Assembly (NCBI GenBank): GCA_963756155.1
Contig: CAVWMQ010000010.1
Coordinates: 8,102 to 72,101, forward strand
DNA: 64,000 bases
Direction: 5' to 3'
Source: an uncultured delta proteobacterium
GTDB lineage: Bacteria; Desulfobacterota; Binatia; Binatales; Binataceae
Shown here: one piece after another, positions 44,570 to 61,917 of the stretch
Layout: every line of letters starts with the position of its first letter
Position numbering within the stretch: position 1 is the first letter of the stretch
Notes under the pieces: model-generated
Seen by the model: the letters and a program-made list of their open reading frames with translations, nothing else
What the model was told of the DNA's origin: nothing
Database searches by the model: none
Program-made: the position numbers and the translations under genes

Positions 44570-44762
44570 CGGTAGCGGAGTGAGTGGGATTTTGAACCGC
44601 CCCTTTACCTCAGCGCTTTGCGCTCGGACCCGATCGCGCAGCAGCGCGCTCGAAGCGGACATTCTGCACTCGGTTCCAACGTCCGCTCATCAGAAATCCC
44701 GACACCTGGCCTCCCGGATCGCGCGTGAAACGAACGCTTATACCGTCGGAGATAGAGGAATT
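44570..44762 (-). repeat. copy A of ~190-bp repeat family with tRNA-Ser-like 3' terminus (most divergent copy)
   Basis: Plus strand tagcggagtgagtgggattttgaacc… …cgaagcggacattctgcactcggttccaacgtccgctcatcagaaatcccgacacctggcctcccggatcgcgcgtgaaacgaacgcttataccgtcggagat. The minus strand ends …GGTTCAAAATCCCACTCACTCCGCTA. It abuts the stop of the GATase gene. Confidence 0.6.
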
Positions 44763-45462: not shown

Positions 45463-45520
45463 GAGCGGGTGGACCCGAAGCAGTGCGTGCTGCGCGTCGA
45501 GGCGGCGAGTAAAGCGCCCT

Positions 45521-46171
45521 CTATGACGATGTGGGCGTAGCGGAAGCCGCCGACACCAGCAGCACCACCGCATCGCGCTTCCCCAGCGCGGCGAGGCGAT
45601 GCGGCGTGCGCGCGTCGAAATGCGCCGCATCGCCGGGTTGCAGCGAATGCTCTTCGTTTTCGAAAATGAGATTCAACCCGCCCGAAATCACGTACAGCCA
45701 TTCCTCGCCCTCGTGCCGATAGAATTTGTCGTGATGCCGGCTCGCAGGGATTCGCATCTCCATCGCCTGCAAGCCCGTCAGCGCGCCGCCGCCGGAGACT
45801 GCGCGATAGGCAAGACCGTTGGCGATTCTCGGCGCCGAAGTTCCCGAGCGAATAATTCTGCACGGCGGCATCGTCAGTAAGTCGCCATCGAGCAAGGTGC
45901 GCACCGGGATGTTGTAAACCTGCGCCAGGGTCAGCAGTGCCGCGAGCGACGGCTGGCGACCCCCGCTTTCCAGCCGTGACAGGTACGGTTCCGACAACTT
46001 GCTGAGCTTGCTCAGCCTCTCCAGCGTCCAACCGCGCTGACTGCGCAACGTCTTGAGCCGCGTGCCGAGCGAGGAGAGAACCTGCTCGAGCGGTTTCGCG
46101 ATTCCGATTCCAACCGCCATCGAGATTGAACTAACATCAAGCATGCCTGCAGGGCAACCAAGATTGTCCAC
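45521..46171 (-). CDS. XRE-family HTH transcriptional regulator with C-terminal cupin domain
   Basis: …LGTRLKTLRSQRGWTLERLSKLSKLSEPYLSRLESGGRQPSLAALLTLAQVYNIPVRTLL (HTH_XRE)… cupin (…FYRHEGEEWLYVISGGLNLIFENEEHSLQPGDAAHFDARTPHR). Confidence 0.8.
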   Translation of the reverse strand: MDNLGCPAGMLDVSSISMAVGIGIAKPLEQVLSSLGTRLKTLRSQRGWTLERLSKLSKLSEPYLSRLESGGRQPSLAALLTLAQVYNIPVRTLLDGDLLTMPPCRIIRSGTSAPRIANGLAYRAVSGGGALTGLQAMEMRIPASRHHDKFYRHEGEEWLYVISGGLNLIFENEEHSLQPGDAAHFDARTPHRLAALGKRDAVVLLVSAASATPTSS

Positions 46172-46319
46172 CAGGCGCGGTCGCTATCCCTGAGGAGGCA
46201 GCATCCCCACCACCTGGCGCCAGCGGGGAACCCAACGCATGCAAACGCATAACGTCTTACTCGAAAGCGGTTCTTTTTGTCCCTCGCTCTTCTCGACGGT
46301 GACCGTCATTCCCCGCAGG

Positions 46320-47144
46320 TTACGCCCCCTCGATTTTCACCACGTCGCCGCTGCGGATTACTCCTGAGCGTTCGACCGTCGCGTAGACTCCGACGTTTGC
46401 ATGATTGGCCGAAACGGCGGTTTTCAGAATCCCCAGGTCCTTGGGCAGGGCACCCTGCGGCAGCGTGGTCATTACGCAGCGCCCGGTCGCGCAGGTGACT
46501 TTCAAACGCACCCCTTCGCCAATCACCAGCGTGCGTCCGACCCAGGAATTTTCGACGAAGCCCTCCTCCCTCGGCGCTACGATCAGGTTCGGCCGAAAGC
46601 GCCGCGCTTCGAAGCTGCCTTGCGGATAGACGCTCTGAAGTTGCTGCAAGGTCGCGGTGGTAAGTATGTGCACGACCGCGCCGTCGAAAAACGTGTCCGG
46701 CGGCATCGCCTCTTCAGTCACGGTCTCGCGATGGGCCAGATCATCAATATCGGGCCAATACTCCTCGAGCTCCGGACTTTCGGGCGGCTTCGATTGCAGC
46801 GAAACGCTGGCGCCCAGTGCGCGCGACAGCAAGCTGTCGAGATTGGCTTGCGTACTGACCGCCGATGCGCCATCGGGCATCGTGATCCGCACCGGAGGAA
46901 TGCCTTCGTGCATGTCGGGAGGTTCGACATACGCCGCGCGGAAGCCGAACATGCCCGGCCACTTGCGCGGATTTTTTGCGCTGACCACTTTGCCGGTGGC
47001 CAGGTCGACCAACGCATAGGACCGATCGCCCAGTAGTCCGCGTTCGGTGACCAGGCTTGAATTAATTTCCTCCCCCATCATCGACTTCACCGGGTAGCGC
47101 CACAGCGAGACGATCGATCCGGCGGTGTTTGCTTCGTGTTCCAT
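46320..47144 (-). CDS. MOSC domain-containing protein (YcbX-like)
   Basis: …IVSLWRYPVKSMMGEEINSSLVTERGLLGDRSYALVD…FRPNLIV…RCVMTT… (conserved Cys). The likely start is MEHEANTAGS. Confidence 0.8.
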   Translation of the reverse strand: MEHEANTAGSIVSLWRYPVKSMMGEEINSSLVTERGLLGDRSYALVDLATGKVVSAKNPRKWPGMFGFRAAYVEPPDMHEGIPPVRITMPDGASAVSTQANLDSLLSRALGASVSLQSKPPESPELEEYWPDIDDLAHRETVTEEAMPPDTFFDGAVVHILTTATLQQLQSVYPQGSFEARRFRPNLIVAPREEGFVENSWVGRTLVIGEGVRLKVTCATGRCVMTTLPQGALPKDLGILKTAVSANHANVGVYATVERSGVIRSGDVVKIEGA

Positions 47145-47204
47145 GGCTTGTGCGTTCTCCCTCATTTCCGTTTCGCCTCGTCTCGGGCCTTCGCGAGGTC
47201 CGAT

Positions 47205-48662
47205 TCAAGCGGTCGCCTTTTCGCGGGTTTCGATGTCTGGGGCGGCCGCCACTACCAATCTGACCGGCGCGCTAGCGTGTTCAGCGTGAATGCGATTCTT
47301 GACGCTGTCGATGAACTCAGGATTGCGCCGCAGAATCATGAACCAGGTCATTCCGATCGCGAGATAGCCCAGGAAGATGTATGGGAAAATATTGACCGGC
47401 CACGATGGCACCGGATAGACGCTGCCGACCGCCGGGACCATCAGCAACACGACCGATGCTACCGAGAACGCAACCGCGCCCGCGCCGAGTTCACGGCGTT
47501 TGCTGAGATATACCGGGGCCGCAATCGAGATCAGAAAGTAGGCCCCGAGAAAGCCGAAGGCGCCAAATGTTCCGGCGTCGTTGAAGGCGTCGAGAATTTC
47601 GAGCTTGAACACCTGGGTCAGGGCGACCGCGGACAGGAAAATCAGGACTGACATGACGGTCACGGCGACGTGAGGCGTCGCGTTGGTTTCGTGCGAAGTT
47701 CCGATCGAGCTGTGAAACACGCCTAGCTTTCCCATCGGATAGAGGATGCGCGCGCCGGAGTTCATGCACGACAGCGCCAGCGAATAGAAACTCGCCATCG
47801 CACCGAAGGAGAGCGGCGCCTTCAGCCAACCGACCTTCATCATGTCGGAGAGCACGTTGAGCGGCGCATCAATTTTGTCCAGCGTGGTCTTGTAGCCGGT
47901 AAAGCCGAGTACTTCGGTGTAGGAAACGAGCACGAAGAATGCTCCGGTCAGCAGCAGGCTGACAATTACCGCTCTGGGAATCGTCGTGAGCGGATTTCTC
48001 GCTTCTTCGCCAAACGCGGTGGCGCACTCGAATCCGACCAGGCTGAAAATCGCGACCACCACGCCGAGGCTGATTCCTGAGAAGGACGCGCCTTGCAGCC
48101 TAATTTGGGCCGGGTCAATCGCCGATTTCTGGCCGAACAGAACGATCGCGCAGAGCAAAAGAATCAGCGCAACCGACAACCCCTCCACTACCAACATCAA
48201 GCCGCTCGAAAGCCGGATGTCCTTGTAGCCGAGGTACCAGATACTGGCGGCGCATACGACAAACAGCGCCAGAGCCGGCACGTGGATACCCATCATGTCG
48301 AGCAGCGTGCTGGCAAAGATGGTGAAGCCGGTCATGCCCGCGGTGCCGATGAACAGGTAGGCCCACACCAGACACCAACCAGACAGGTTGCCGAGAGTCG
48401 TGCCCAGGCCCATCACCGTGTAGGCGTACATCGAACCCGCGGAGGTCGAGCGCTTGGCAAACTGGTTCAGATTCAGCGCCACGAAGAGCAGCATCACGGT
48501 GCCGAACAGATATGCGAGCCAGCTCGCGTTGCCGGCGTTGCTGTACATCAACGGCACGATCAACGCCGCCGTCATGGTCGGCGAAATAAGCGCGATTGCC
48601 ATCGCGGTGATGCCTGAGAAGCCGAGACATTCCTTGCGTAATGATCCGCTGGATTCACCCAT
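47205..48662 (-). CDS. APC-superfamily amino acid permease
   Basis: About 485 aa with 12 TM helices (…MAIALISPTMTAALIVPLMYSNAGNASWLAYLFGTVMLLFVALNLNQFAKRSTSAGSMYAYT…). The likely ATG is at about 48662. The listed ORF (to 48791) runs through the upstream operator array using an alternative start. Confidence 0.8.
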   Translation of the reverse strand: MGESSGSLRKECLGFSGITAMAIALISPTMTAALIVPLMYSNAGNASWLAYLFGTVMLLFVALNLNQFAKRSTSAGSMYAYTVMGLGTTLGNLSGWCLVWAYLFIGTAGMTGFTIFASTLLDMMGIHVPALALFVVCAASIWYLGYKDIRLSSGLMLVVEGLSVALILLLCAIVLFGQKSAIDPAQIRLQGASFSGISLGVVVAIFSLVGFECATAFGEEARNPLTTIPRAVIVSLLLTGAFFVLVSYTEVLGFTGYKTTLDKIDAPLNVLSDMMKVGWLKAPLSFGAMASFYSLALSCMNSGARILYPMGKLGVFHSSIGTSHETNATPHVAVTVMSVLIFLSAVALTQVFKLEILDAFNDAGTFGAFGFLGAYFLISIAAPVYLSKRRELGAGAVAFSVASVVLLMVPAVGSVYPVPSWPVNIFPYIFLGYLAIGMTWFMILRRNPEFIDSVKNRIHAEHASAPVRLVVAAAPDIETREKATA

Positions 48663-48728
48663 GGAACGTACCTCCAAGCTGCGCGCGCCCGGCACCCGCG
48701 ATGGTGCAAACGGGCTAGCGGTCAAAAA

Positions 48729-48791
48729 TTGCCTGTCAGGCAACCATGCAAGTGAGATGCCTGACAGGCAATGACGCGACCTGTCAGGCAA
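48729..48791. promoter_or_regulatory. array of three 7-1-7 palindromes TTGCCTG-N-CAGGCAA upstream of the APC permease gene
   Basis: ttgcctgtcaggcaa (48729-48743), tgcctgacaggcaa (48758-48771), cctgtcaggcaa (48780-48791). Spacing is about 25 bp, 70-130 nt upstream of the permease ATG. Candidate operator sites for a dimeric regulator. Confidence 0.55.
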
Positions 48792-48920
48792 TCAAGGAGA
48801 AATAACCACCACGCGCAGGCTGGTATGACTCGGCGCGGGTCAGATGACGCCAAATCGAGCAGCGCGGCCGTCGCCGAACCCCCAACCACCGAAAAAAACT
48901 ACTGCCGTCCCGATCGCTGG

Positions 48921-48964
48921 AAGCGAACGTTCCGCACTCGATTCCAACGTCCGCTCATCAGAAG
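48921..48964 (-). repeat. partial copy E of the repeat family (hairpin module only)
   Basis: gaagcgaacgttccgcactcgattccaacgtccgctcatcagaa matches the central module of copies A, B and C. It carries compensating differences in the stem. Confidence 0.5.
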
Positions 48965-49504
48965 GTTTGTCTCGCTTGGCGATCAGGCCGGCCTTGCGCT
49001 TGTCCTTGAGTCGATCGCTGTCACCGTTGATGTTGACGATAATGAAGTGATGCAGAATGACGATCGAGCATCGCAACGGTGAGGACGCTGTCGCCGGCGA
49101 AAGCCGAGTCTCAACTGGTCTCGCTCTCGTGGACTGTTCGAGCTCGATGCGCTGGTCGTTCCGCATGCCGACGTCGAGCAAGCGATCGAGGCGCGCGCAC
49201 GGGAGCTCGGCACCAAAATCCGGCGCGCACACGAGCTGACCGATCTGCACCATGAGGAGGGTCTCGTGAGGGTGGGAGTCATGGGGCCGAGCGGTGCCTA
49301 CGAGGAGCGCAGCCGCTATCTCGCATTCGCTCTGGCCATGGTGACACTGACCCCCTCATCAGGTACAAGGCGGAAGCACCGGCGGAGCGCAGGACTTAAT
49401 TACACAGAGGTATATTCGCGGCTCGCGTTTGAACCGCGCGGAGGGTTTCGCCGCAATCGTTCCCGAAGGAAGAGGTCCCGAGTAGAAGTCACCGAGGAGA
49501 TCCG

Positions 49505-50200
49505 ATGACGGTTAACCGCCGGCGTCCTGCGTGGCTCTCGATACTCGTTGCGAGCGTCGCCTCTGCTTTGTCGTTCTCATTGCCAGGTCTCGCCGTTCTC
49601 CCTGCTCGAGCCCAGAACTCGCCAACGCTGCAGGGCACCGTTACCAACAATGTTCCCGCGACGGCGCTCTCCAGAAACGACCTCGACACCAAGCACCAGA
49701 TCGACGAGGAAGACGATCAGCACGATGGCAACGACGCCGCTATCGACGGTGCGGTTCGCGCGGAGAACGTCGCGCATGATTACCACTTAGACCCGGACAC
49801 GGGTCTGGTCTCGCAGGATGGGAATCACTTCTATAGCGATATCGACCTTCACGGGGTTTATGATAGCGAGGGCAACGATGTCACGCGGCAGTTTTTCAAC
49901 GAGTTAATGAAAAATCCGCAGTACCGCGACGGCCCGCTACAGGACCTGATTCAGCATTATCCGCAGGATTGGTGGCAATTTAGAAATAACCCCGCGGTGG
50001 CGGGCACGAACTATGGCCACCAGGTAGGAGGCGGCAAGACCGCGACGGCTTATTTGCCGGACTCAACGGTGCGTCTGGATTCCATCGCACAGATGCGCGC
50101 GCTTTATGCTGAAAACCACATCAACTTTTCGTGGCTCTATCCCACCACTGATCGAGCCGTCATTGATGCGGCCGCTCGCGTCCAGGTCCGCCGCAATTGA
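49505..50200 (+). CDS. secreted hypothetical protein
   Basis: Signal peptide MTVNRRRPAWLSILVASVASALSFSLPGLAVLPARAQ. Acidic N-terminal region, then …QYRDGPLQDLIQHYPQDWWQFRNNPAVAGTNYGHQVGG… GC is lower than the genome average. The stop abuts the stop of the convergent gene. Confidence 0.5.
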   Translation: MTVNRRRPAWLSILVASVASALSFSLPGLAVLPARAQNSPTLQGTVTNNVPATALSRNDLDTKHQIDEEDDQHDGNDAAIDGAVRAENVAHDYHLDPDTGLVSQDGNHFYSDIDLHGVYDSEGNDVTRQFFNELMKNPQYRDGPLQDLIQHYPQDWWQFRNNPAVAGTNYGHQVGGGKTATAYLPDSTVRLDSIAQMRALYAENHINFSWLYPTTDRAVIDAAARVQVRRN

Positions 50201-50902
50201 CTAGTGATACTGCATATACCGCGTAATAGTCAGCGCGTCGGCGGAGCTCACCTTCTCGAGACCACCGTAGAAAAGCCGGACCGCGTTGCACTTCTCCTCC
50301 GCGGCCACACTCCCGGAAGTATTCGTCGCCATCGCCCGGATAGCGGCTTGATCGGTGGGCGATATCGTCGCCATCAGCCGGTCCATCGCGGCATTGAACT
50401 GAACCTGCGGCGCCGCCGGCATTGCCGGTTGGTTTTTTATCGTCGCGAGCGCAGCCATGTCGAAAAGCTGGGCCGATTGACGCTGCTGGTCGTCGGGCAG
50501 CGCTTCGATCGCGCGCACCAGCACGTCGCTATTCCCGCCCGACCACATTTCCGAACAGGCCTCCGCGTTGGCGCGCCGGACGAAGTCAGACCGCAGCCGA
50601 GCGATCGGGATCAGAGTCGGATCGTCGAGGCGCTGGAATCCCTGCACCGCTGCGAGCCGGACCACCCCCGCCACGTCGATATGCGAGGCATCGATATGCT
50701 GCGCGTTGGCCTCGCGCGCACCGGCCAACAGCAGCGCCTCGACGATGTCCGGGTAGCCCTTCTGCAGAGAAGTTTCGAAGACCGTGGGCGCGGTGCCGGA
50801 TTCGGTCGTGTCGGCGCCGGGCACCTTGTAGGTGCGCTGAACCACGAACCACAAGAGCACTAGCAGCGCGAGTACCGCTATCAAGGTCAGAAACCTTCCC
50901 AT
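50201..50902 (-). CDS. membrane-anchored hypothetical protein
   Basis: N-terminal TM helix MGRFLTLIAVLALLVLLWFVVQ, then a ~200-aa soluble domain with no family match. Confidence 0.5.
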   Translation of the reverse strand: MGRFLTLIAVLALLVLLWFVVQRTYKVPGADTTESGTAPTVFETSLQKGYPDIVEALLLAGAREANAQHIDASHIDVAGVVRLAAVQGFQRLDDPTLIPIARLRSDFVRRANAEACSEMWSGGNSDVLVRAIEALPDDQQRQSAQLFDMAALATIKNQPAMPAAPQVQFNAAMDRLMATISPTDQAAIRAMATNTSGSVAAEEKCNAVRLFYGGLEKVSSADALTITRYMQYH

Positions 50903-51163
50903 CGATCGGCTCTCGCCAAGGCGTCATTTGAATTCAACGATCGACAATCAGAACCGCGCAAAAAACCCGGCCACTCGGGTGCCGCTGGATTTCACGCGAG
51001 ATATCATTTCATCGAAACTAACTGCGAATCACAACTGCCGAATCAATTCCCGGATTGAATTCAAGCAGCGCCGCGCGATTGCGGCGGCAATACCTACTCG
51101 CTTGTGCCCGCGGCCGGCCATTTGCGGCGATCTCCCTCGGCCCGGCGCCGGAGGCGGTCGGGG

Positions 51164-52999
51164 TCAGGGAATCGGACAACTGCGCGCCAACGCGAACCTT
51201 GCTGAGAGCGTTTTGCCCTGACCTAAGCTGAAGTCATATTTGAAGCGAACATCGTAGGAACCATTTTCAAAGATAGGACCCAGAAATTGCAGTGTGCGAC
51301 CCGTGTCGAGGTCCAGATAGTAGGGGGCGTTGTTAAACTGTCCGCCGCTCGCGGGATGACGCGTCACGGCGAGGCTGCCGGCGGTCGGTCGGCCTTGGTA
51401 ATCGATTACCGCAACAATCATTCCGTCGGTGCGGTAGCGCGTCGTTGGACACCCTTCGGTTCCTGTGATCGTCGAACCCGGAGGATAGATTTTCGTTGCG
51501 GCCGGAAGCTTCGCTCGCGACCCCTGTCCGGTCACCGAGCCGTCCACAAACGCGAAACCGGTCAGGCTGGCGTTCGCGTCGGCGCTGGCAGAGAAGGACC
51601 GTGTCGCATCAGACACCTGCATCGACGGATATTTCACGTTGATCGTCAGATTCAGCGTGCCGGTTCGGTAGGGAAACTTCGCCGCGTCGTAGCTGAGTAG
51701 TCCGGAGGGTGCGTTGGGGTTGTTCGACAGTCCAACGCCCTCGCGCGGAGTGCCATTCGGGTTCAGCTCGAGCACATGGGTGCTGTCCTCGTCGTGAAAC
51801 ACCAGGATCGCGTAAGAACCGGGGTCTTGACTCTCGAAGTCGCATCCGGCGCGTCGATTGGTGATCGTCGACGCAGTGCTCGCCGCGTTCCCATCGGTGT
51901 TCGAGGGGAAGTCTTGGGCCGACTCAAACAGCTGGCAATAGACCTGCCCCCGGTTGTTTCGCAGCCCCGCGATCTCGACATGGATAAGGTTGTCGGATTG
52001 ACCTCCTTCCTCCTCCTGGTCGGAGTTGGCAAGTCTTGCGTCGTTTTGATCTGGCAACTCGGCTAGAACGACACCCTGCTCGTCGAGTGCCGAATCGATG
52101 ACCCATTCGGTGCCGAAGACCCCGATGCTACCGGCGGCATATGAGCCGCGGCCATAATTTTCGAGATGCGCGCTTTTGATCCGCTTACCGCGCAGCCCTT
52201 TTGCTCGCAGTTTCGCCACCGCTGCGGGTAGATCCATAAAGCTCGCAGGTAACGCACGTTGATCCCTGGGATCGGCGCTGGAGCCGGGCATCAACTCGCT
52301 GGCGGGCGAATTAGGCATAAGGGTGAGCGTCTGCTGCTGTCCGGGAGAGAAGAAGTTGAACTCGACCAGCACACCCCCCTGCGGGGATTGCGCATTGCTG
52401 ATACTGGAGGTCAGCTCCATCTGGATCGACGTCAGGAAGGCGTCGGGTTGCCATTTGGTCCGAACGTACGCGAGTGCACGCTGCGCGATCGCCGGCACGT
52501 CTCCGATCGGCCATTGGACTTGCTCCGGGAGCACCTGGCTTGCGGCCGCGCTCCGCATTGGGGCCTCGGACGAACTGCGGGTCCACTCGATATCGGCGCC
52601 GGGGGCGGTTCGGGTCGTCATATGTTTGCTGCCTTCGAGGCGAAACGCACCGACCATCCCCGAGATGCTGCCCCCCATGATCATGAACGTGCCGCTGTCC
52701 TTGCCGGTGACGTAAAGGTTTGGCGCAAAGGTACCGTTTGGCAGGCTCGTAATAGTGGCCTGCTGACTAGTCAGCGGCATCGGGCACGAATCGCCGTAGG
52801 CGATCTGCCCCGTATCGCCAATTTCCATCACGCATCGCTGACGTTGGCCGGCCGGGTTGGAAATTTCCGCCTGCCACCGGCCCACGGTCGTACTCTTCGC
52901 TGGCGCCGATGTATCGGACTCGGAATGTCGGCACCCCCAGATACCGGCGGCGATCACGATCGCGAGACTAAAGCGTACGATCGCGCTCATTTGGGACAA
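51164..52999 (-). CDS. large lipoprotein of unknown function with DUF2141-like segment
   Basis: Signal/lipobox (…AIVIAAGIWGC). 611 aa. The segment …IHVEIAGLRNNRGQVYCQLFESAQDFPSN… resembles the DUF2141 pattern as I remember it. Many Gly/Ser/Thr-rich beta-like regions. Confidence 0.55.
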   Translation of the reverse strand: MSQMSAIVRFSLAIVIAAGIWGCRHSESDTSAPAKSTTVGRWQAEISNPAGQRQRCVMEIGDTGQIAYGDSCPMPLTSQQATITSLPNGTFAPNLYVTGKDSGTFMIMGGSISGMVGAFRLEGSKHMTTRTAPGADIEWTRSSSEAPMRSAAASQVLPEQVQWPIGDVPAIAQRALAYVRTKWQPDAFLTSIQMELTSSISNAQSPQGGVLVEFNFFSPGQQQTLTLMPNSPASELMPGSSADPRDQRALPASFMDLPAAVAKLRAKGLRGKRIKSAHLENYGRGSYAAGSIGVFGTEWVIDSALDEQGVVLAELPDQNDARLANSDQEEEGGQSDNLIHVEIAGLRNNRGQVYCQLFESAQDFPSNTDGNAASTASTITNRRAGCDFESQDPGSYAILVFHDEDSTHVLELNPNGTPREGVGLSNNPNAPSGLLSYDAAKFPYRTGTLNLTINVKYPSMQVSDATRSFSASADANASLTGFAFVDGSVTGQGSRAKLPAATKIYPPGSTITGTEGCPTTRYRTDGMIVAVIDYQGRPTAGSLAVTRHPASGGQFNNAPYYLDLDTGRTLQFLGPIFENGSYDVRFKYDFSLGQGKTLSARFALARSCPIP

Positions 53000-53330
53000 T
53001 AGGACTCGGCGTAGGACTGAATGGCAGATGAACGGGTGATCTCTCTTTGCCGTGGCCCTAAGCTCCTGCGATAGGGTGGTGAGCGCCGCTCTCAGCCAGC
53101 GCCTTCAAAGACAATAATCCTGTAGGCGTTGAGAAATCTACGCCGGTTCCAATCACGTCCCCGCCAAAGTGCCAGATAGGAAAAGAAGTGCTGATGCAAT
53201 TCCGCAACCGAAGCGAGTCGGCACCGAAGACCTTCATCTGCCCCGAAATTTCTCCGGTCCCCTCAGGCAGCAAAAAATCCGCGCACCTGCGGACTATTGT
53301 CGAGTTTCCTGCGGAGATAGCGAAATATGG

Positions 53331-53386
53331 AGACTGCTTGGCGGTGAGGGTGGGATTTGAACCGTCGCGCCCCTTGATTTTCAGCG
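53331..53386 (-). repeat. partial copy D of the repeat family (tRNA-Ser-like 3' terminus module only)
   Basis: Plus gactgcttggcggtgagggtgggatttgaaccgtcgcgccccttgattttcagcgg. The minus strand ends …GGTTCAAATCCCACCCTCACCGCCA. By my memory this is identical to the 3' end of enterobacterial tRNA-Ser(GCU) (…CCCTCACCGCCA). Confidence 0.55.
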
Positions 53387-53776
53387 GTTTGGTGCCGGTG
53401 CGCGGATCGAGCTGGACGCGCTCAGTGGTGGGCGAATACTAGAGGCCTTGTCCCGACTAACCGCGCGGCGGCCTGCGCACCGCCCTGCGGGCGATCGCGC
53501 GTGAGCGCGACTGCTGGCGGCGGCCGTCCTACGAGCGCTGGTTGATCAGATCGATCATCGCCTGCTGACAGTCGCCGGAGTCCGAAGTGCGCTGATAGCT
53601 GCGGTCCGGGCGCATCTGCCAGGCGCATCGATTGGGCGCGAGCTGGCTGTCGGGCACCGCGCGCCAGCTCCTTGCGCAGGGCAGGATCCTCAACGGGCGC
53701 AAGCGCTTCGACCCAGGGCCGCCGGCGGCTTTCTTACCGCCTGCTGACCCTGAGTCGTTCACAAGGAAAATCTACC

Positions 53777-54454
53777 TTAGTGGCCAGTCGTTCGCTTATA
53801 GCTGATGAGCGCGAAGTTGAGTTCCTGCGGTGACGAGGACTCCGCCTTGACGAAAAAGCCCACCGGCTCTGGGGCGTACCACAATGTTGTCCGATCGCTC
53901 GGGCCGTGGCGCGAGTCGATGCGATAGGCTTCGTACGTCCCTGCCGGCACGGTCACCCTCTCGACTCCAACCACCGTTCCAGTGCCCGTTAGTGGAATGA
54001 ACTCGCCGCCAGCAGTCGACGCGGCATAGATAACTGTCCAAGTCTTGCCGATCGTCAGCGGAAAGTTGGCACTCTGATCGCACGGACGAAAGCGCGTCAA
54101 CGTGTTATTGACCTGAAATTGCGTCGGGCACATGTGCGAGTCCAACTCCATCGTGAAAGCGCCGGCATCCGATTGAGGCGTTTGCTTGCTGGCGAATACG
54201 ACGGAATCGCCGTCGTGCTTCACAACCAGGTCCACGTCGCCCGGAAGCTGAAGGCCTGATGCGGTATCCGTCGGGAAACGAATCGCGAAGTCGTCGCCGT
54301 CCGTAAACGTGGGCGCATTGACTGCCGGGCTGCCCGCCGCTATCGACGTGGCCGGCGCAGGAGTGCCGCCCGAAGGCGCCGCCCCCTGCTGGCCGGCACA
54401 TCCCCCCGTAAGAACAGTTACTGCCAGCACAAAGACGATCAATGGCGCGCGCAC
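53777..54454 (-). CDS. lipoprotein of unknown function
   Basis: MRAPLIVFVLAVTVLTGGCAG (lipobox), then a 200-aa domain with no family match. Confidence 0.55.
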   Translation of the reverse strand: MRAPLIVFVLAVTVLTGGCAGQQGAAPSGGTPAPATSIAAGSPAVNAPTFTDGDDFAIRFPTDTASGLQLPGDVDLVVKHDGDSVVFASKQTPQSDAGAFTMELDSHMCPTQFQVNNTLTRFRPCDQSANFPLTIGKTWTVIYAASTAGGEFIPLTGTGTVVGVERVTVPAGTYEAYRIDSRHGPSDRTTLWYAPEPVGFFVKAESSSPQELNFALISYKRTTGH

Positions 54455-54725
54455 GTTGGCCTCCTCAAGGGCGTAGCGATGAAGTGAGGCCCGGTATACT
54501 GCCGTCCGGCGCAGTGATGCAACTGCTGAGCGCGGAAGAGAGTCCCAGCTCTGGGTCTGGCTCTACCGATTGTGGCCGCGCTGTCAGGAGGGCGATGGTG
54601 TTGGTGAAGCCGGCCACGGTTGTCCGATGGCATCGTCAGGGCTTCCGCTTGTTTTGGCGATGGCGTTCGAGATCAGTGCGGCCGTCAGCCATGCCCCGCT
54701 CAGTAAAAAGCAGCACCGTATTCCC

Positions 54726-55262
54726 TCAGCGCCGCTCGGTGTCTGTGTCGCGCTTGTTCGCGAATACATGGTAGGCGGTGCTGTCCCATGCGTTGTGGAT
54801 GCCGATGAAGAGTAACAAGAGCGCCGCGGCTCCGACGCCAAACAGGGCTTCGCGCGTGCGGGAGGGAGCCGCGAATGCCGATAGCGCGAGCATCGCGTAC
54901 GCCGCCAGAGGTAGCAGAGCGTGAAATAGCCAGTCCTCGAACTCCGGTTGGTATACGGTTTGCCGACGAATCCGCCCAGTTACGATGAGCGCGTATGCTA
55001 CCCCGCTAGAGGCCGATAAGGCCGCAAAGAGCTGCGGCGGGAATGATCGATTGCCATGGAACTCGTAGGAGTGTCGACAAAAGCAACGCGGTGCTGAAGT
55101 GAATGATTGTCGGCGTGGCAAATGCGGCGCCGGCCTCCGCCACACGCAGTGGAGGACTCGCGGCAACGAGCGTCATAACGACGAACTGCAATCCGATCAG
55201 GGCGCCTGCGGCCGAGCCGACGATTACGTAGAAACTGTCCCATGCGGTGAGCGCTGACATAT
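54726..55262 (-). pseudogene. polytopic membrane protein gene split by a frameshift (two overlapping minus-strand frames)
   Basis: The listed ORF 55006..55383 (…MSALTAWDSFYVIVGSAAGALIGLQFVVMTLVAASPP…IIPAAALCGLIGL*) and the listed ORF 54726..55166 (…LFAALSASSGVAYALIVTGRIRR…LLPLAAYAMLALSAFAAP…GVGAAALLLLFIGIHNAWD…) are both TM-rich. They overlap by about 40 nt in different frames. A single-nt indel near 55010-55045 would join them into one ~180-aa protein. Confidence 0.45.
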
Positions 55263-58367: not shown

Positions 58368-58559
58368 AACCCTCGGTGGCGGAGACGGTGGGATTTGAAC
58401 CGTCGCGCCCCTTGATTTTCAGCGGGTTGCGCTCGGATCCGATTGCGCGCCGGCGCGCTCGGGTGCTCTCTCGAAGCGAACGTTCTGCGCTCGATTCCAA
58501 CGTCCGCTCATCAGAAATCCCGATACCTGGCCTCCCGGGTCGCGACTGAAACGAACAGC
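58368..58559 (-). repeat. copy B of ~190-bp repeat family with tRNA-Ser-like 3' terminus
   Basis: Plus tggcggagacggtgggatttgaaccgtcgcgccccttgattttcagcgggttgcgctcggatccgattgcgcgccggcgcgctcgggtgctctctcgaagcgaacgttctgcgctcgattccaacgtccgctcatcagaaatcccgatacctggcctcccgggtcgcgactgaaacgaacagc. The minus strand ends …CGACGGTTCAAATCCCACCGTCTCCGCCA. Confidence 0.65.
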
Positions 58560-61717: not shown

Positions 61718-61917
61718 TTGGCGGAGAGGCTGGTATTTGAACCGTCGCGGCCCTTGATTTTCAGCGGGTTGCGCTCGGATCCGATCGCGCGCCGGCGCGC
61801 TCGGGTGCTCTCTCGAAGCGGAACGTTCTGCACTCGATTCCAACGTTCGCTCATCAGAAATCCCGATACCTGGCCTCCCGGATCGCGAGTGAAACGAACG
61901 CTGATGCCGTCGGAGAT
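61718..61917 (-). repeat. copy C of ~190-bp repeat family with tRNA-Ser-like 3' terminus
   Basis: Plus ttggcggagaggctggtatttgaaccgtcgcggcccttgattttcagcgggttgcgctcggatccgatcgcgcgccggcgcgctcgggtgctctctcgaagcggaacgttctgcactcgattccaacgttcgctcatcagaaatcccgatacctggcctcccggatcgcgagtgaaacgaacgctgatgccgtcggagat. The minus strand ends …GGTTCAAATACCAGCCTCTCCGCCA. Same orientation as B, 3.35 kb away. Confidence 0.65.

Follow-up and report, generated by a model that had tools for sequence, protein, structure and literature searches.

Palindromic operators upstream of an amino-acid permease gene in uncultured Binataceae: a candidate XRE-cupin regulator and a probable sigma-54-type promoter

When palindromic repeats are found in front of a transport gene of an uncultured bacterium, it has to be asked whether these repeats are operators at all, which protein binds them and what kind of promoter they control. 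We address these questions for three 15-base-pair (bp) repeats that lie upstream of a gene for an APC-family amino-acid permease in an uncultured member of the Binataceae. The stretch of DNA that was analysed, hereinafter the window, comprises 64,000 nucleotides (nt) of contig CAVWMQ010000010.1 (assembly GCA_963756155.1, positions 8,102-72,101, forward strand). To our knowledge, gene regulation has not been described in Candidatus Binatus, a widespread soil lineage that has no cultured members, or, more generally, in the phylum Binatota.

For comparison, the permease protein was scanned against one genome per species, which yielded 80 loci, identified below by numbers with the prefix L. The best matches, with 91-93% amino-acid identity, come from metagenome-assembled genomes (MAGs) of Candidatus Binatus and the Binataceae (phylum Binatota), and the more distant ones from Armatimonadota, Acidobacteriota, Planctomycetota, Alphaproteobacteria and Burkholderiales. 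All per-position statistics on the repeat array refer to 32 sequences, namely, 31 Binataceae loci and the window. The array and the gene cluster that it precedes are read on the minus strand throughout, and the relaxed motif is defined as TTGCC-N5-GGCAA with at most one mismatch.

The palindromes upstream of the permease gene

On the plus strand, the three copies read TTGCCTGTCAGGCAA (48729-48743), a perfect palindrome with two 7-nt arms around a single central base (7-1-7), ATGCCTGACAGGCAA (48757-48771), a palindrome with one mismatch, and CGACCTGTCAGGCAA (48777-48791), which has in common with the other copies only the 12-nt sequence CCTGTCAGGCAA and lacks one outer arm. An earlier note on this DNA had described three 15-bp palindromes of the 7-1-7 type spaced about 25 bp apart; all three copies are indeed present at these positions, but only two of them are full palindromes, the third being partial, and the start-to-start spacing is 28 and 20 bp. 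When up to two mismatches are allowed, the 15-mer occurs in the 64 kilobases (kb) only as the 48729 and 48757 copies, with 0.16 occurrences expected, and the relaxed motif has six matches in the window against 2.1 expected, of which two are in the array, one is at 46143-46157 and three are within long open reading frames (ORFs). With its two full palindromes and one partial copy, the array is clearly beyond chance. From the distal to the promoter-proximal one, the sites, numbered from the predicted transcription start, are:

48777-48791, minus strand: operator A, the distal copy, which is partial, spans about -55 to -41 and reads TTGCCTGACAGGTCG on the gene strand; left half-site good, right half weak
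48757-48771, minus strand: operator B, which spans about -35 to -21 and reads TTGCCTGTCAGGCAT on the gene strand; the predicted sigma-54 -24 element is formed by the right arm, GGCAT (48761-48757)
48729-48743, minus strand: operator C, promoter-proximal, TTGCCTGACAGGCAA on the gene strand; covers the predicted start, about -7 to +8

The array is located 58-134 nt upstream of the permease ATG in all 31 Binataceae loci as well as in the window, and most of the Binataceae loci have the CCTGNCAGG core with TTG and CAA flanks at 70-146 nt upstream of the start of the permease gene and almost nowhere else. Aligned in gene orientation, the layout is [TTGCCTGACAGGT] - 8/9 nt - TTGCC-N4-AGGCA(T/C) - N5 - TTGCA - 2 to 5 nt - TTGCCT-N3-AGGCAA. 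Operator C is the best conserved site, with TTGCCT-N3-AGGCAA in 32/32 sequences and an information content of approximately 2 bits at each half-site position that drops to approximately 0.5 bit at positions 7-9; the same pattern, about 2 bits per position in the half-sites TTGCC(T)/(A)GGCAA and about 0.5 bit in the centre, characterizes the half-sites in the 32 sequences generally. The distance from A to B is 20-21 bp, which puts the two sites on the same face of the helix and is kept by the close relatives as well as by the group L023-L029, and the distance from B to C is 27-30 bp. Complementarity at the inner positions of the 7-1-7 palindrome is limited to 11-17 of the 32 sequences, and the spacer of B is the reverse complement of the spacer of C in only two, so the perfect complementarity between B and C that is seen in the window is not conserved. 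The combination of conserved half-sites, a free centre and the lack of compensatory changes points to sites for a dimeric DNA-binding protein rather than to an RNA or DNA hairpin. As judged from this comparison, the conserved palindromes are operators of a dimeric regulator, with the consensus TTGCC-N5-GGCAA and the half-site TTGCCT. The proposal of the earlier note that an operator-type array for a dimeric regulator lies upstream of the true permease start is thus borne out by the half-site conservation and the free centre across the 32 sequences.

The same data bear on two explanations that would dispense with a regulator. Under the first of these, the repeats would act as nucleic-acid structure, either as hairpins in a 5' leader transcribed from a promoter located further upstream or as a cruciform. 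In the window, the arms 48728-42 and 48758-72 are 100% complementary (B and C match at 15/15 positions), and the region folds with a z-score of -3.2. However, apart from the lack of covariation and the rarity of spacer and inner pairing described above, an Rfam scan of 45900-49400 with E-values up to 1 matched no family, the predicted start of transcription falls in the middle of operator C, and the same motif occupies the -35 position of an apparently leaderless gene (see below), where transcription of the motif would be impossible. Such a structural role appears highly improbable. Under the second explanation, the repeats would be a mobile or dispersed palindromic element of the repetitive extragenic palindrome (REP) or miniature inverted-repeat transposable element (MITE) type that has no regulatory role. 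This idea draws on the presence of a dispersed repeat on the flanks of the gene cassette and on the differing genomic contexts of the cassette in related genomes, but that flanking repeat is a different sequence, the palindromes of the window are confined, bar the three relaxed matches in long ORFs, to the array and the promoter of the regulator gene, and their position relative to the gene start is fixed in 31 genomes, so that we attach next to no probability to it.

Additional perfect copies of TTGCC-N5-GGCAA occur in one subgroup of the Binataceae where the permease gene ends, shortly before the gene for a MOSC-domain protein (L024:6526 and L026:3126 and 3258).

The putative regulator and its own promoter

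The permease gene is the first in a same-strand cluster that runs permease, MOSC-domain protein, XRE-cupin protein and class-I glutamine amidotransferase, and the order permease-MOSC-XRE/cupin, with or without the amidotransferase, is kept in about 27 Binataceae loci. The earlier note had stated that no regulator gene is adjacent to the array, the nearest being an XRE/cupin gene 2.5 kb away, and had guessed at a regulator of the GntR, LysR or MarR type. Both statements have to be revised: the XRE-cupin gene is the third gene of this cluster, is syntenic across the Binataceae and has a motif copy of its own, and it is with this gene that the motif pairs across the 80 loci, in several phyla. Two features are relevant here:

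45521-46120, minus strand: gene for the XRE-cupin transcription factor, 199 amino acids, third gene of the cluster and proposed binder of all four sites; Pfam HTH_3, HTH_31 and Cupin_2
46143-46157, minus strand: fourth operator, with the gene-strand sequence TTGCCCTGCAGGCAT, 22 nt upstream of ATG 46120; it overlaps the promoter of the regulator gene itself at the -35 position

In the ORF 45521-46171, the helix-turn-helix (HTH) domains HTH_3/HTH_31 match residues 35-91 and Cupin_2 matches residues 138-206; the nearest solved relative with both domains is 1y9q. The HTH stretch GWTL..L...LS..YLSRLE.G.RQPS is nearly invariant across phyla. The cluster of PuuR, the putrescine utilisation repressor of Escherichia coli, likewise contains an APC-type importer and a class-I amidotransferase-like hydrolase, but the window protein is not an orthologue of PuuR, its score with NF007408 being 37.4 bits against a cut-off of 211.

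The fourth operator is one of the six matches to the relaxed motif in the 64-kb window; the three matches outside the two promoters, as already mentioned, are inside ORFs. The regulator promoter reads, on the gene strand, GTTGCCCTGCAGGCAT-gcttga-TG-t-TAGTTC-aatctcg-ATG, where TG-T-TAGTTC, at 46136-46128, is followed by 7 nt and then by the ATG at 46120, and there is no Shine-Dalgarno sequence. Given an operator that lies over the -35 position of an extended -10 promoter and an ATG that stands where transcription should start, the transcript of the XRE-cupin gene is probably leaderless and probably made from a sigma-70-type promoter. The same arrangement of the operator upstream of the regulator gene, with the centre of the palindrome likewise free, was found in 27/27 Binataceae loci examined. 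Seven loci from other phyla (Armatimonadota, Capsulimonadaceae, Terriglobus and Tepidisphaeraceae) have the regulator gene immediately upstream of the permease gene, and the regulator gene is there preceded by GTTGAC-N5-GGCAAC or, in L043, by TTGCC-N5-GGCAA; in these loci, the motif overlaps the -35 box of a TTGACT-17-TATAAT promoter, and L030:5235-5273, for example, reads TTGACT-17 nt-TATAAT-5 nt-ATG, again with no Shine-Dalgarno sequence. An operator at its own promoter suggests that the regulator is autoregulated.

The motif and the regulator gene have closely similar distributions among the 80 loci. All 33 loci that encode the regulator contain the motif at the permease promoter or at the regulator promoter, and 41 of the 47 loci that do not encode it are without the motif as well. 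Five of the six exceptions can be accounted for, in that the regulator gene is frameshifted or fragmentary (L012 and L029), the contig ends inside the permease gene (L066), or the operon is a paralogous permease operon (L017 and L018), and the sixth (L057) is likely a chance match. One of the paralogous operons is informative in itself: L017 and L002 belong to the same Binatus MAG, JBEKLS01, which has two paralogous permease-MOSC operons, both with the array, and an XRE-cupin gene in the L002 locus only, which suggests regulation in trans. In the 373 kb of Binataceae loci, 86 of the 115 motif matches fall within two short promoter segments. In Pararobbsia (L061:4374-5921, minus strand), the homologous module of permease, amidotransferase and M24-peptidase genes is found beside a regulator of the MocR type (GntR plus aminotransferase) and a ferredoxin reductase, with no XRE-cupin gene, and the CCTGNCAGG core has no match anywhere in this locus; this is a case of non-orthologous replacement of the regulator.

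The presence of the operator at both promoters, the co-occurrence across phyla and the conserved HTH jointly identify the XRE-cupin protein as the very probable binder of these sites, and there is a good chance that it acts as a repressor. It might be argued that the palindromes are bound instead by a regulator encoded elsewhere, be it of the GntR, LysR or MarR type or an enhancer-binding activator, given that the paralogous operons L017 and L018 carry the array with no regulator gene in the locus. Against such a regulator, the motif and the XRE-cupin gene co-occur strictly across the 80 loci, in four phyla, the motif is found over the regulator's own promoter everywhere, the genome that contains L017 does encode the regulator, in L002, and the Burkholderiales with a MocR-type regulator beside the permease have no motif. 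An enhancer-binding activator, in particular, would be incompatible with sites that overlap -24 and +1. A binder other than the XRE-cupin protein is, accordingly, quite unlikely.

The permease promoter and a proposed mechanism

The sigma-54 consensus that was used for the -24/-12 elements is TGGCAC-N5-TTGCW, with GG-N10-GC spacing. In gene orientation, the following elements are predicted in the region of operators B and C, and a conserved block is found further upstream:

48747-48751, minus strand: predicted sigma-54 -12 element, TTGCA; TTGC is invariant in 32/32 sequences, always 5 nt after GGCAY
about 48736, minus strand: predicted transcription start, placed by sigma-54 promoter geometry 12 nt to the 3' side of the C in the -12 GC
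48826-48863, minus strand: conserved non-coding block, GCTGC-N9-GGCGTCATCTGAC-N9-GAGTCA; about -127 to -90, at the 5' edge of the conserved cassette

The sequence GGCATCTCACTTGCA (48761-48747, gene strand) is the only exact match to GGCAY-N5-TTGCW in the 64-kb window. Between B and C, GG[CT]A[CT]-N5-TTGC is present with invariant spacing in 32/32 sequences, which all retain GG-N10-GC, and at least 6/7 of the flanking consensus positions are matched in 26/30 loci. The gap between TTGCA and operator C, by contrast, drifts among 2, 3, 4 and 5 nt. The -24/-12 element persists in loci where the left arm of operator B is lost (L024, L026 and L041), the GG of operator B is invariant, and position 15 of this operator is T or C in 32/32 sequences and never A, whereas the same position in operator C is A in 32/32. 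The invariant N5 spacing, the persistence without the B arm and the T or C as the last base of B argue for a promoter rather than a by-product of the operators, and it is likely that the permease promoter is sigma-54-dependent.

The same operators and regulator could also control a sigma-70 promoter, in which TTGCAT (48751-48746) would be the -35 element and operator C would contain, or be directly followed by, a weak -10 element, which reads TTTTTG in the window and TTTAGT or TTTATT in relatives. Indeed, TTGCAT resembles TTGACA, the closest relatives have a T-rich AATTT after operator C, and promoters of the sigma-70 type are found for the regulator gene itself and in the other phyla. However, the aligned loci have no conserved TAnnnT hexamer at a suitable distance from TTGCAT, that is, 16-18 nt downstream, where the distant loci show AACACC, AAATCG and CTTGCG, and a scan of 45900-49300 with the sigma-70 consensus returned no promoter-like site. 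Furthermore, a -35 box would not need the GG-N10-GC spacing that is invariant in 32/32 sequences, even where operator B is disrupted, as in the three loci named above. A sigma-70 permease promoter is, in our view, unlikely.

Other elements in the Binataceae loci resemble the predicted sigma-54 promoter of the permease gene. In L014:4810-4826 and L021:4840-4856 (minus strand), TGGCAT-N5-CTGCTT is kept while the rest of the intergenic region has diverged. It lies about 75 nt in front of a gene with an ABM (antibiotic biosynthesis monooxygenase-like) domain and hints at a second candidate sigma-54 promoter in the Binataceae. In L001:9915-9939 and L002:4556-4580, GGCAA-N5-TTGCC-N5-GGCAA is found upstream of a gene for a 227-amino-acid protein of the M24-peptidase family that follows the amidotransferase gene; there is a hint of a -24/-12-like element here too, in which the left half of the operator would be the -12 box. 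The M24-peptidase gene is absent from the window and is linked to the permease gene in many Alphaproteobacteria and Burkholderiales.

In the 16 aligned loci, conservation begins abruptly about 135 nt upstream of the predicted start. The invariant columns of the upstream block are GCTGC, CAT, TGA and G.CA, and the block contains the inverted repeat TGAC-N9-GTCA. This block may be a candidate site for an activator (enhancer-binding protein) or else the edge of the cassette. An NtrC-like site, TGCACC-N6-GGTGCC, at 48708-48691, was considered and rejected: it is not conserved in the orthologues and belongs to the leader hairpin described below.

We lean, on the whole, toward a mechanism in which a ligand-sensing XRE-cupin repressor occludes a sigma-54 promoter that is turned on by an enhancer-binding activator. 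Dimers of the XRE-cupin protein would bind C and B, and A cooperatively with B; with B over the -24 box and C over -7 to +8, the sigma-54 holoenzyme would be unable to form or use the closed complex. The cupin domain would sense a small molecule, probably the transported substrate or its product, whereupon the repressor would be released. After the release, an enhancer-binding activator encoded elsewhere would still be needed, perhaps bound at the block between -127 and -90. Activators of the nitrogen-control type are common for amino-acid permeases, and the activator postulated here could be of this type. The regulator would also limit its own synthesis via the fourth operator, at 46143-46157, on its sigma-70-type and probably leaderless promoter.

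Several observations weigh against this mechanism or its parts. The right half of operator A is poor, with three mismatches, and the conservation of this site may reflect another function. The base that precedes the GG of the predicted -24 element is A, where the consensus has T, and the operator half-sites (TTGC.. and ..GCAA/GGCA) themselves resemble -12 and -24 elements, which means that the operators could account for part of what looks like a promoter. In six-frame translations of the window and the 80 loci, there is neither an RpoN-box signature nor an enhancer-binding protein gene recognizable by the GAFTGA or Walker A signatures, and nothing on sigma-54 was found in the literature searched on Binatota/Binatia. 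Finally, the Fisher p of 1e-16 for the co-occurrence of regulator and motif overstates the independence of the loci, which are phylogenetically related.

The resemblance between half-sites and promoter elements can also be read in another way. A single repressor half-site (TTGCC/GGCAA) might mimic core elements of two sigma factors, that is, the sigma-54 -24 element in operator B, the sigma-54 -12 element upstream of the M24-peptidase gene of the relatives and the sigma-70 -35 element in the regulator's own promoter and in other phyla, so that one protein would occlude both holoenzymes. This is a tentative generalization, to which doubt attaches slightly more readily than assent; if it is true, the Binatota, an uncultured phylum, would have their first mapped cis-regulatory circuit.

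The proposed regulator is not without relatives. XRE-cupin factors are local, often autoregulated dimeric repressors, with palindromes next to metabolic or transport genes (PMC7901475; PMC12565409). The repressors PauR, PsdR and ErfA of Pseudomonas aeruginosa and PuuR of E. coli have the same N-terminal XRE HTH and C-terminal cupin sensor, and the palindromic dimer sites, the neighbouring metabolic or transport targets, the autoregulation and the small transferable gene unit are also shared (PMC7901475). By contrast, the TTGCC-N5-GGCAA sequence was not found in either PMC7901475 or PMC12565409, and the present operators overlap a sigma-54-type promoter, with a single regulon, in an uncultured lineage, having operators on a -24 element, a start site and a sigma-70 -35 box, as predicted here. 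The logic of the circuit would be that of Pseudomonas hutU, its closest functional precedent, where a sigma-54 promoter that depends on the global activators NtrC/CbrB is gated by the specific repressor HutC (PMC8871633). In both cases, a sigma-54 promoter for amino-acid uptake or catabolism would combine a global activator with a substrate-specific local repressor; however, HutC is a member of the GntR family, the activator and its sites are known in hutU only, and here two or three repressor sites would lie directly on the core promoter.

Another parallel comes from phage lambda, where XRE-type HTH dimers, cI and Cro, act on an array of tandem palindromic operators (OR1-OR3) and the repressor gene is leaderless and autoregulated. 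The present system is similar in the XRE-type HTH dimer, in the placement of operators about two helical turns apart (A to B, 20-21 bp), in the operator at the regulator's own promoter and in the probably leaderless transcript. Unlike the lambda system, it would be a ligand-sensing metabolic regulator rather than a phage immunity switch, has no divergent promoter pair and involves a predicted sigma-54 promoter.

Thus, the kind of regulator, an XRE-cupin local repressor in an ordinary local gene switch, is already known, and what is new is its instance in a little-studied lineage. Having operators on the core of a sigma-54 promoter and using one half-site as a -24/-12/-35 look-alike would be a neat variant, not a new principle, and the current understanding of bacterial regulation is unchanged. 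Nevertheless, the analysis provides a concrete candidate pair of regulator and operator and a small regulon for Candidatus Binatus, consisting of the permease operon, the regulator and, in relatives, the M24-peptidase gene. The permease promoter would also illustrate well how a local repressor placed directly on the core of a sigma-54 promoter joins global activator control with substrate-specific repressor control, and, with the inducer identified, regulator and operator could be used as a switch that responds to a ligand.

Gene starts, neighbouring genes and genomic context

The remaining features of the cluster, in gene orientation, are:

48682-48720, minus strand: GC-rich hairpin obtained by single-sequence folding of the predicted 5' leader, next to the ribosome-binding site on its upstream side
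48671-48675, minus strand: Shine-Dalgarno sequence GGAGG of the permease gene, invariant in the alignment
47205-48662, minus strand: APC-family amino-acid permease, 485 amino acids, first gene of the cluster; Pfam AA_permease and AA_permease_2, NCBIfam matches generic only
46320-47165, minus strand: MOSC-domain protein; Pfam MOSC and MOSC_N, syntenic in the Binataceae
44761 to approximately 45495, minus strand: class-I glutamine amidotransferase, encoded at the end of the cluster; scores 347 bits with NCBIfam PRK07053, for which the cut-off is 250; start uncertain, about 45465-45495

The permease start at ATG 48662, as given in the earlier note, agrees with the GGAGG box at 48675-48671 and with the conservation of the start in relatives. 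The longer ORF that begins with TTG at 48791 is an in-frame extension of the permease by 43 codons that runs through the repeats; the note had called it implausible, and rightly so, because the conserved motif-to-ATG distance in the orthologues takes all three values modulo 3 (100, 99, 101, 89, 98, 59 and so on) and this variation by non-multiples of three implies that the extension is not translated.

The predicted leader is 74 nt long. A single long leader hairpin is predicted in 12/12 orthologous leaders despite their differing sequences, and the z-scores range from -0.35 to -4.2.

The ORF of 137 codons with an ATG start that lies directly upstream of the array (48840-49253, minus strand) was considered and rejected as probably not a gene: Pfam gives no match for it, and none of the loci has a homologue. 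Its end contains the conserved GTCATCTGA, but this is not a conserved C-terminus, given that in relatives it varies at the first and second positions of codons.

The window contains a dispersed direct repeat in four same-strand copies, at 44647-44720, 48915-48963, 58470-58538 and 61812-61884, with 90-95% identity; three of these extend to about 150-180 nt, and the 48915 copy is a 49-nt core. Two of the copies, 4268 bp apart, bracket the cassette from the permease to the amidotransferase. A tRNA-like look of this repeat was considered, but a scan of the window for tRNA and tmRNA genes detected none, which rules out a tRNA. None of the 80 loci of other genomes contains this repeat, nor does any locus contain a homologue of the 6 kb that lie upstream of the cassette in the window (48870-54870). 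Among closely related genomes, the four-gene cassette is found in differing genomic contexts. It is either mobile or located in a rearrangement-prone region. In L001 (L001:1-5860), the first 414 nt match the DNA downstream of the amidotransferase gene in L004, L007 and L008.

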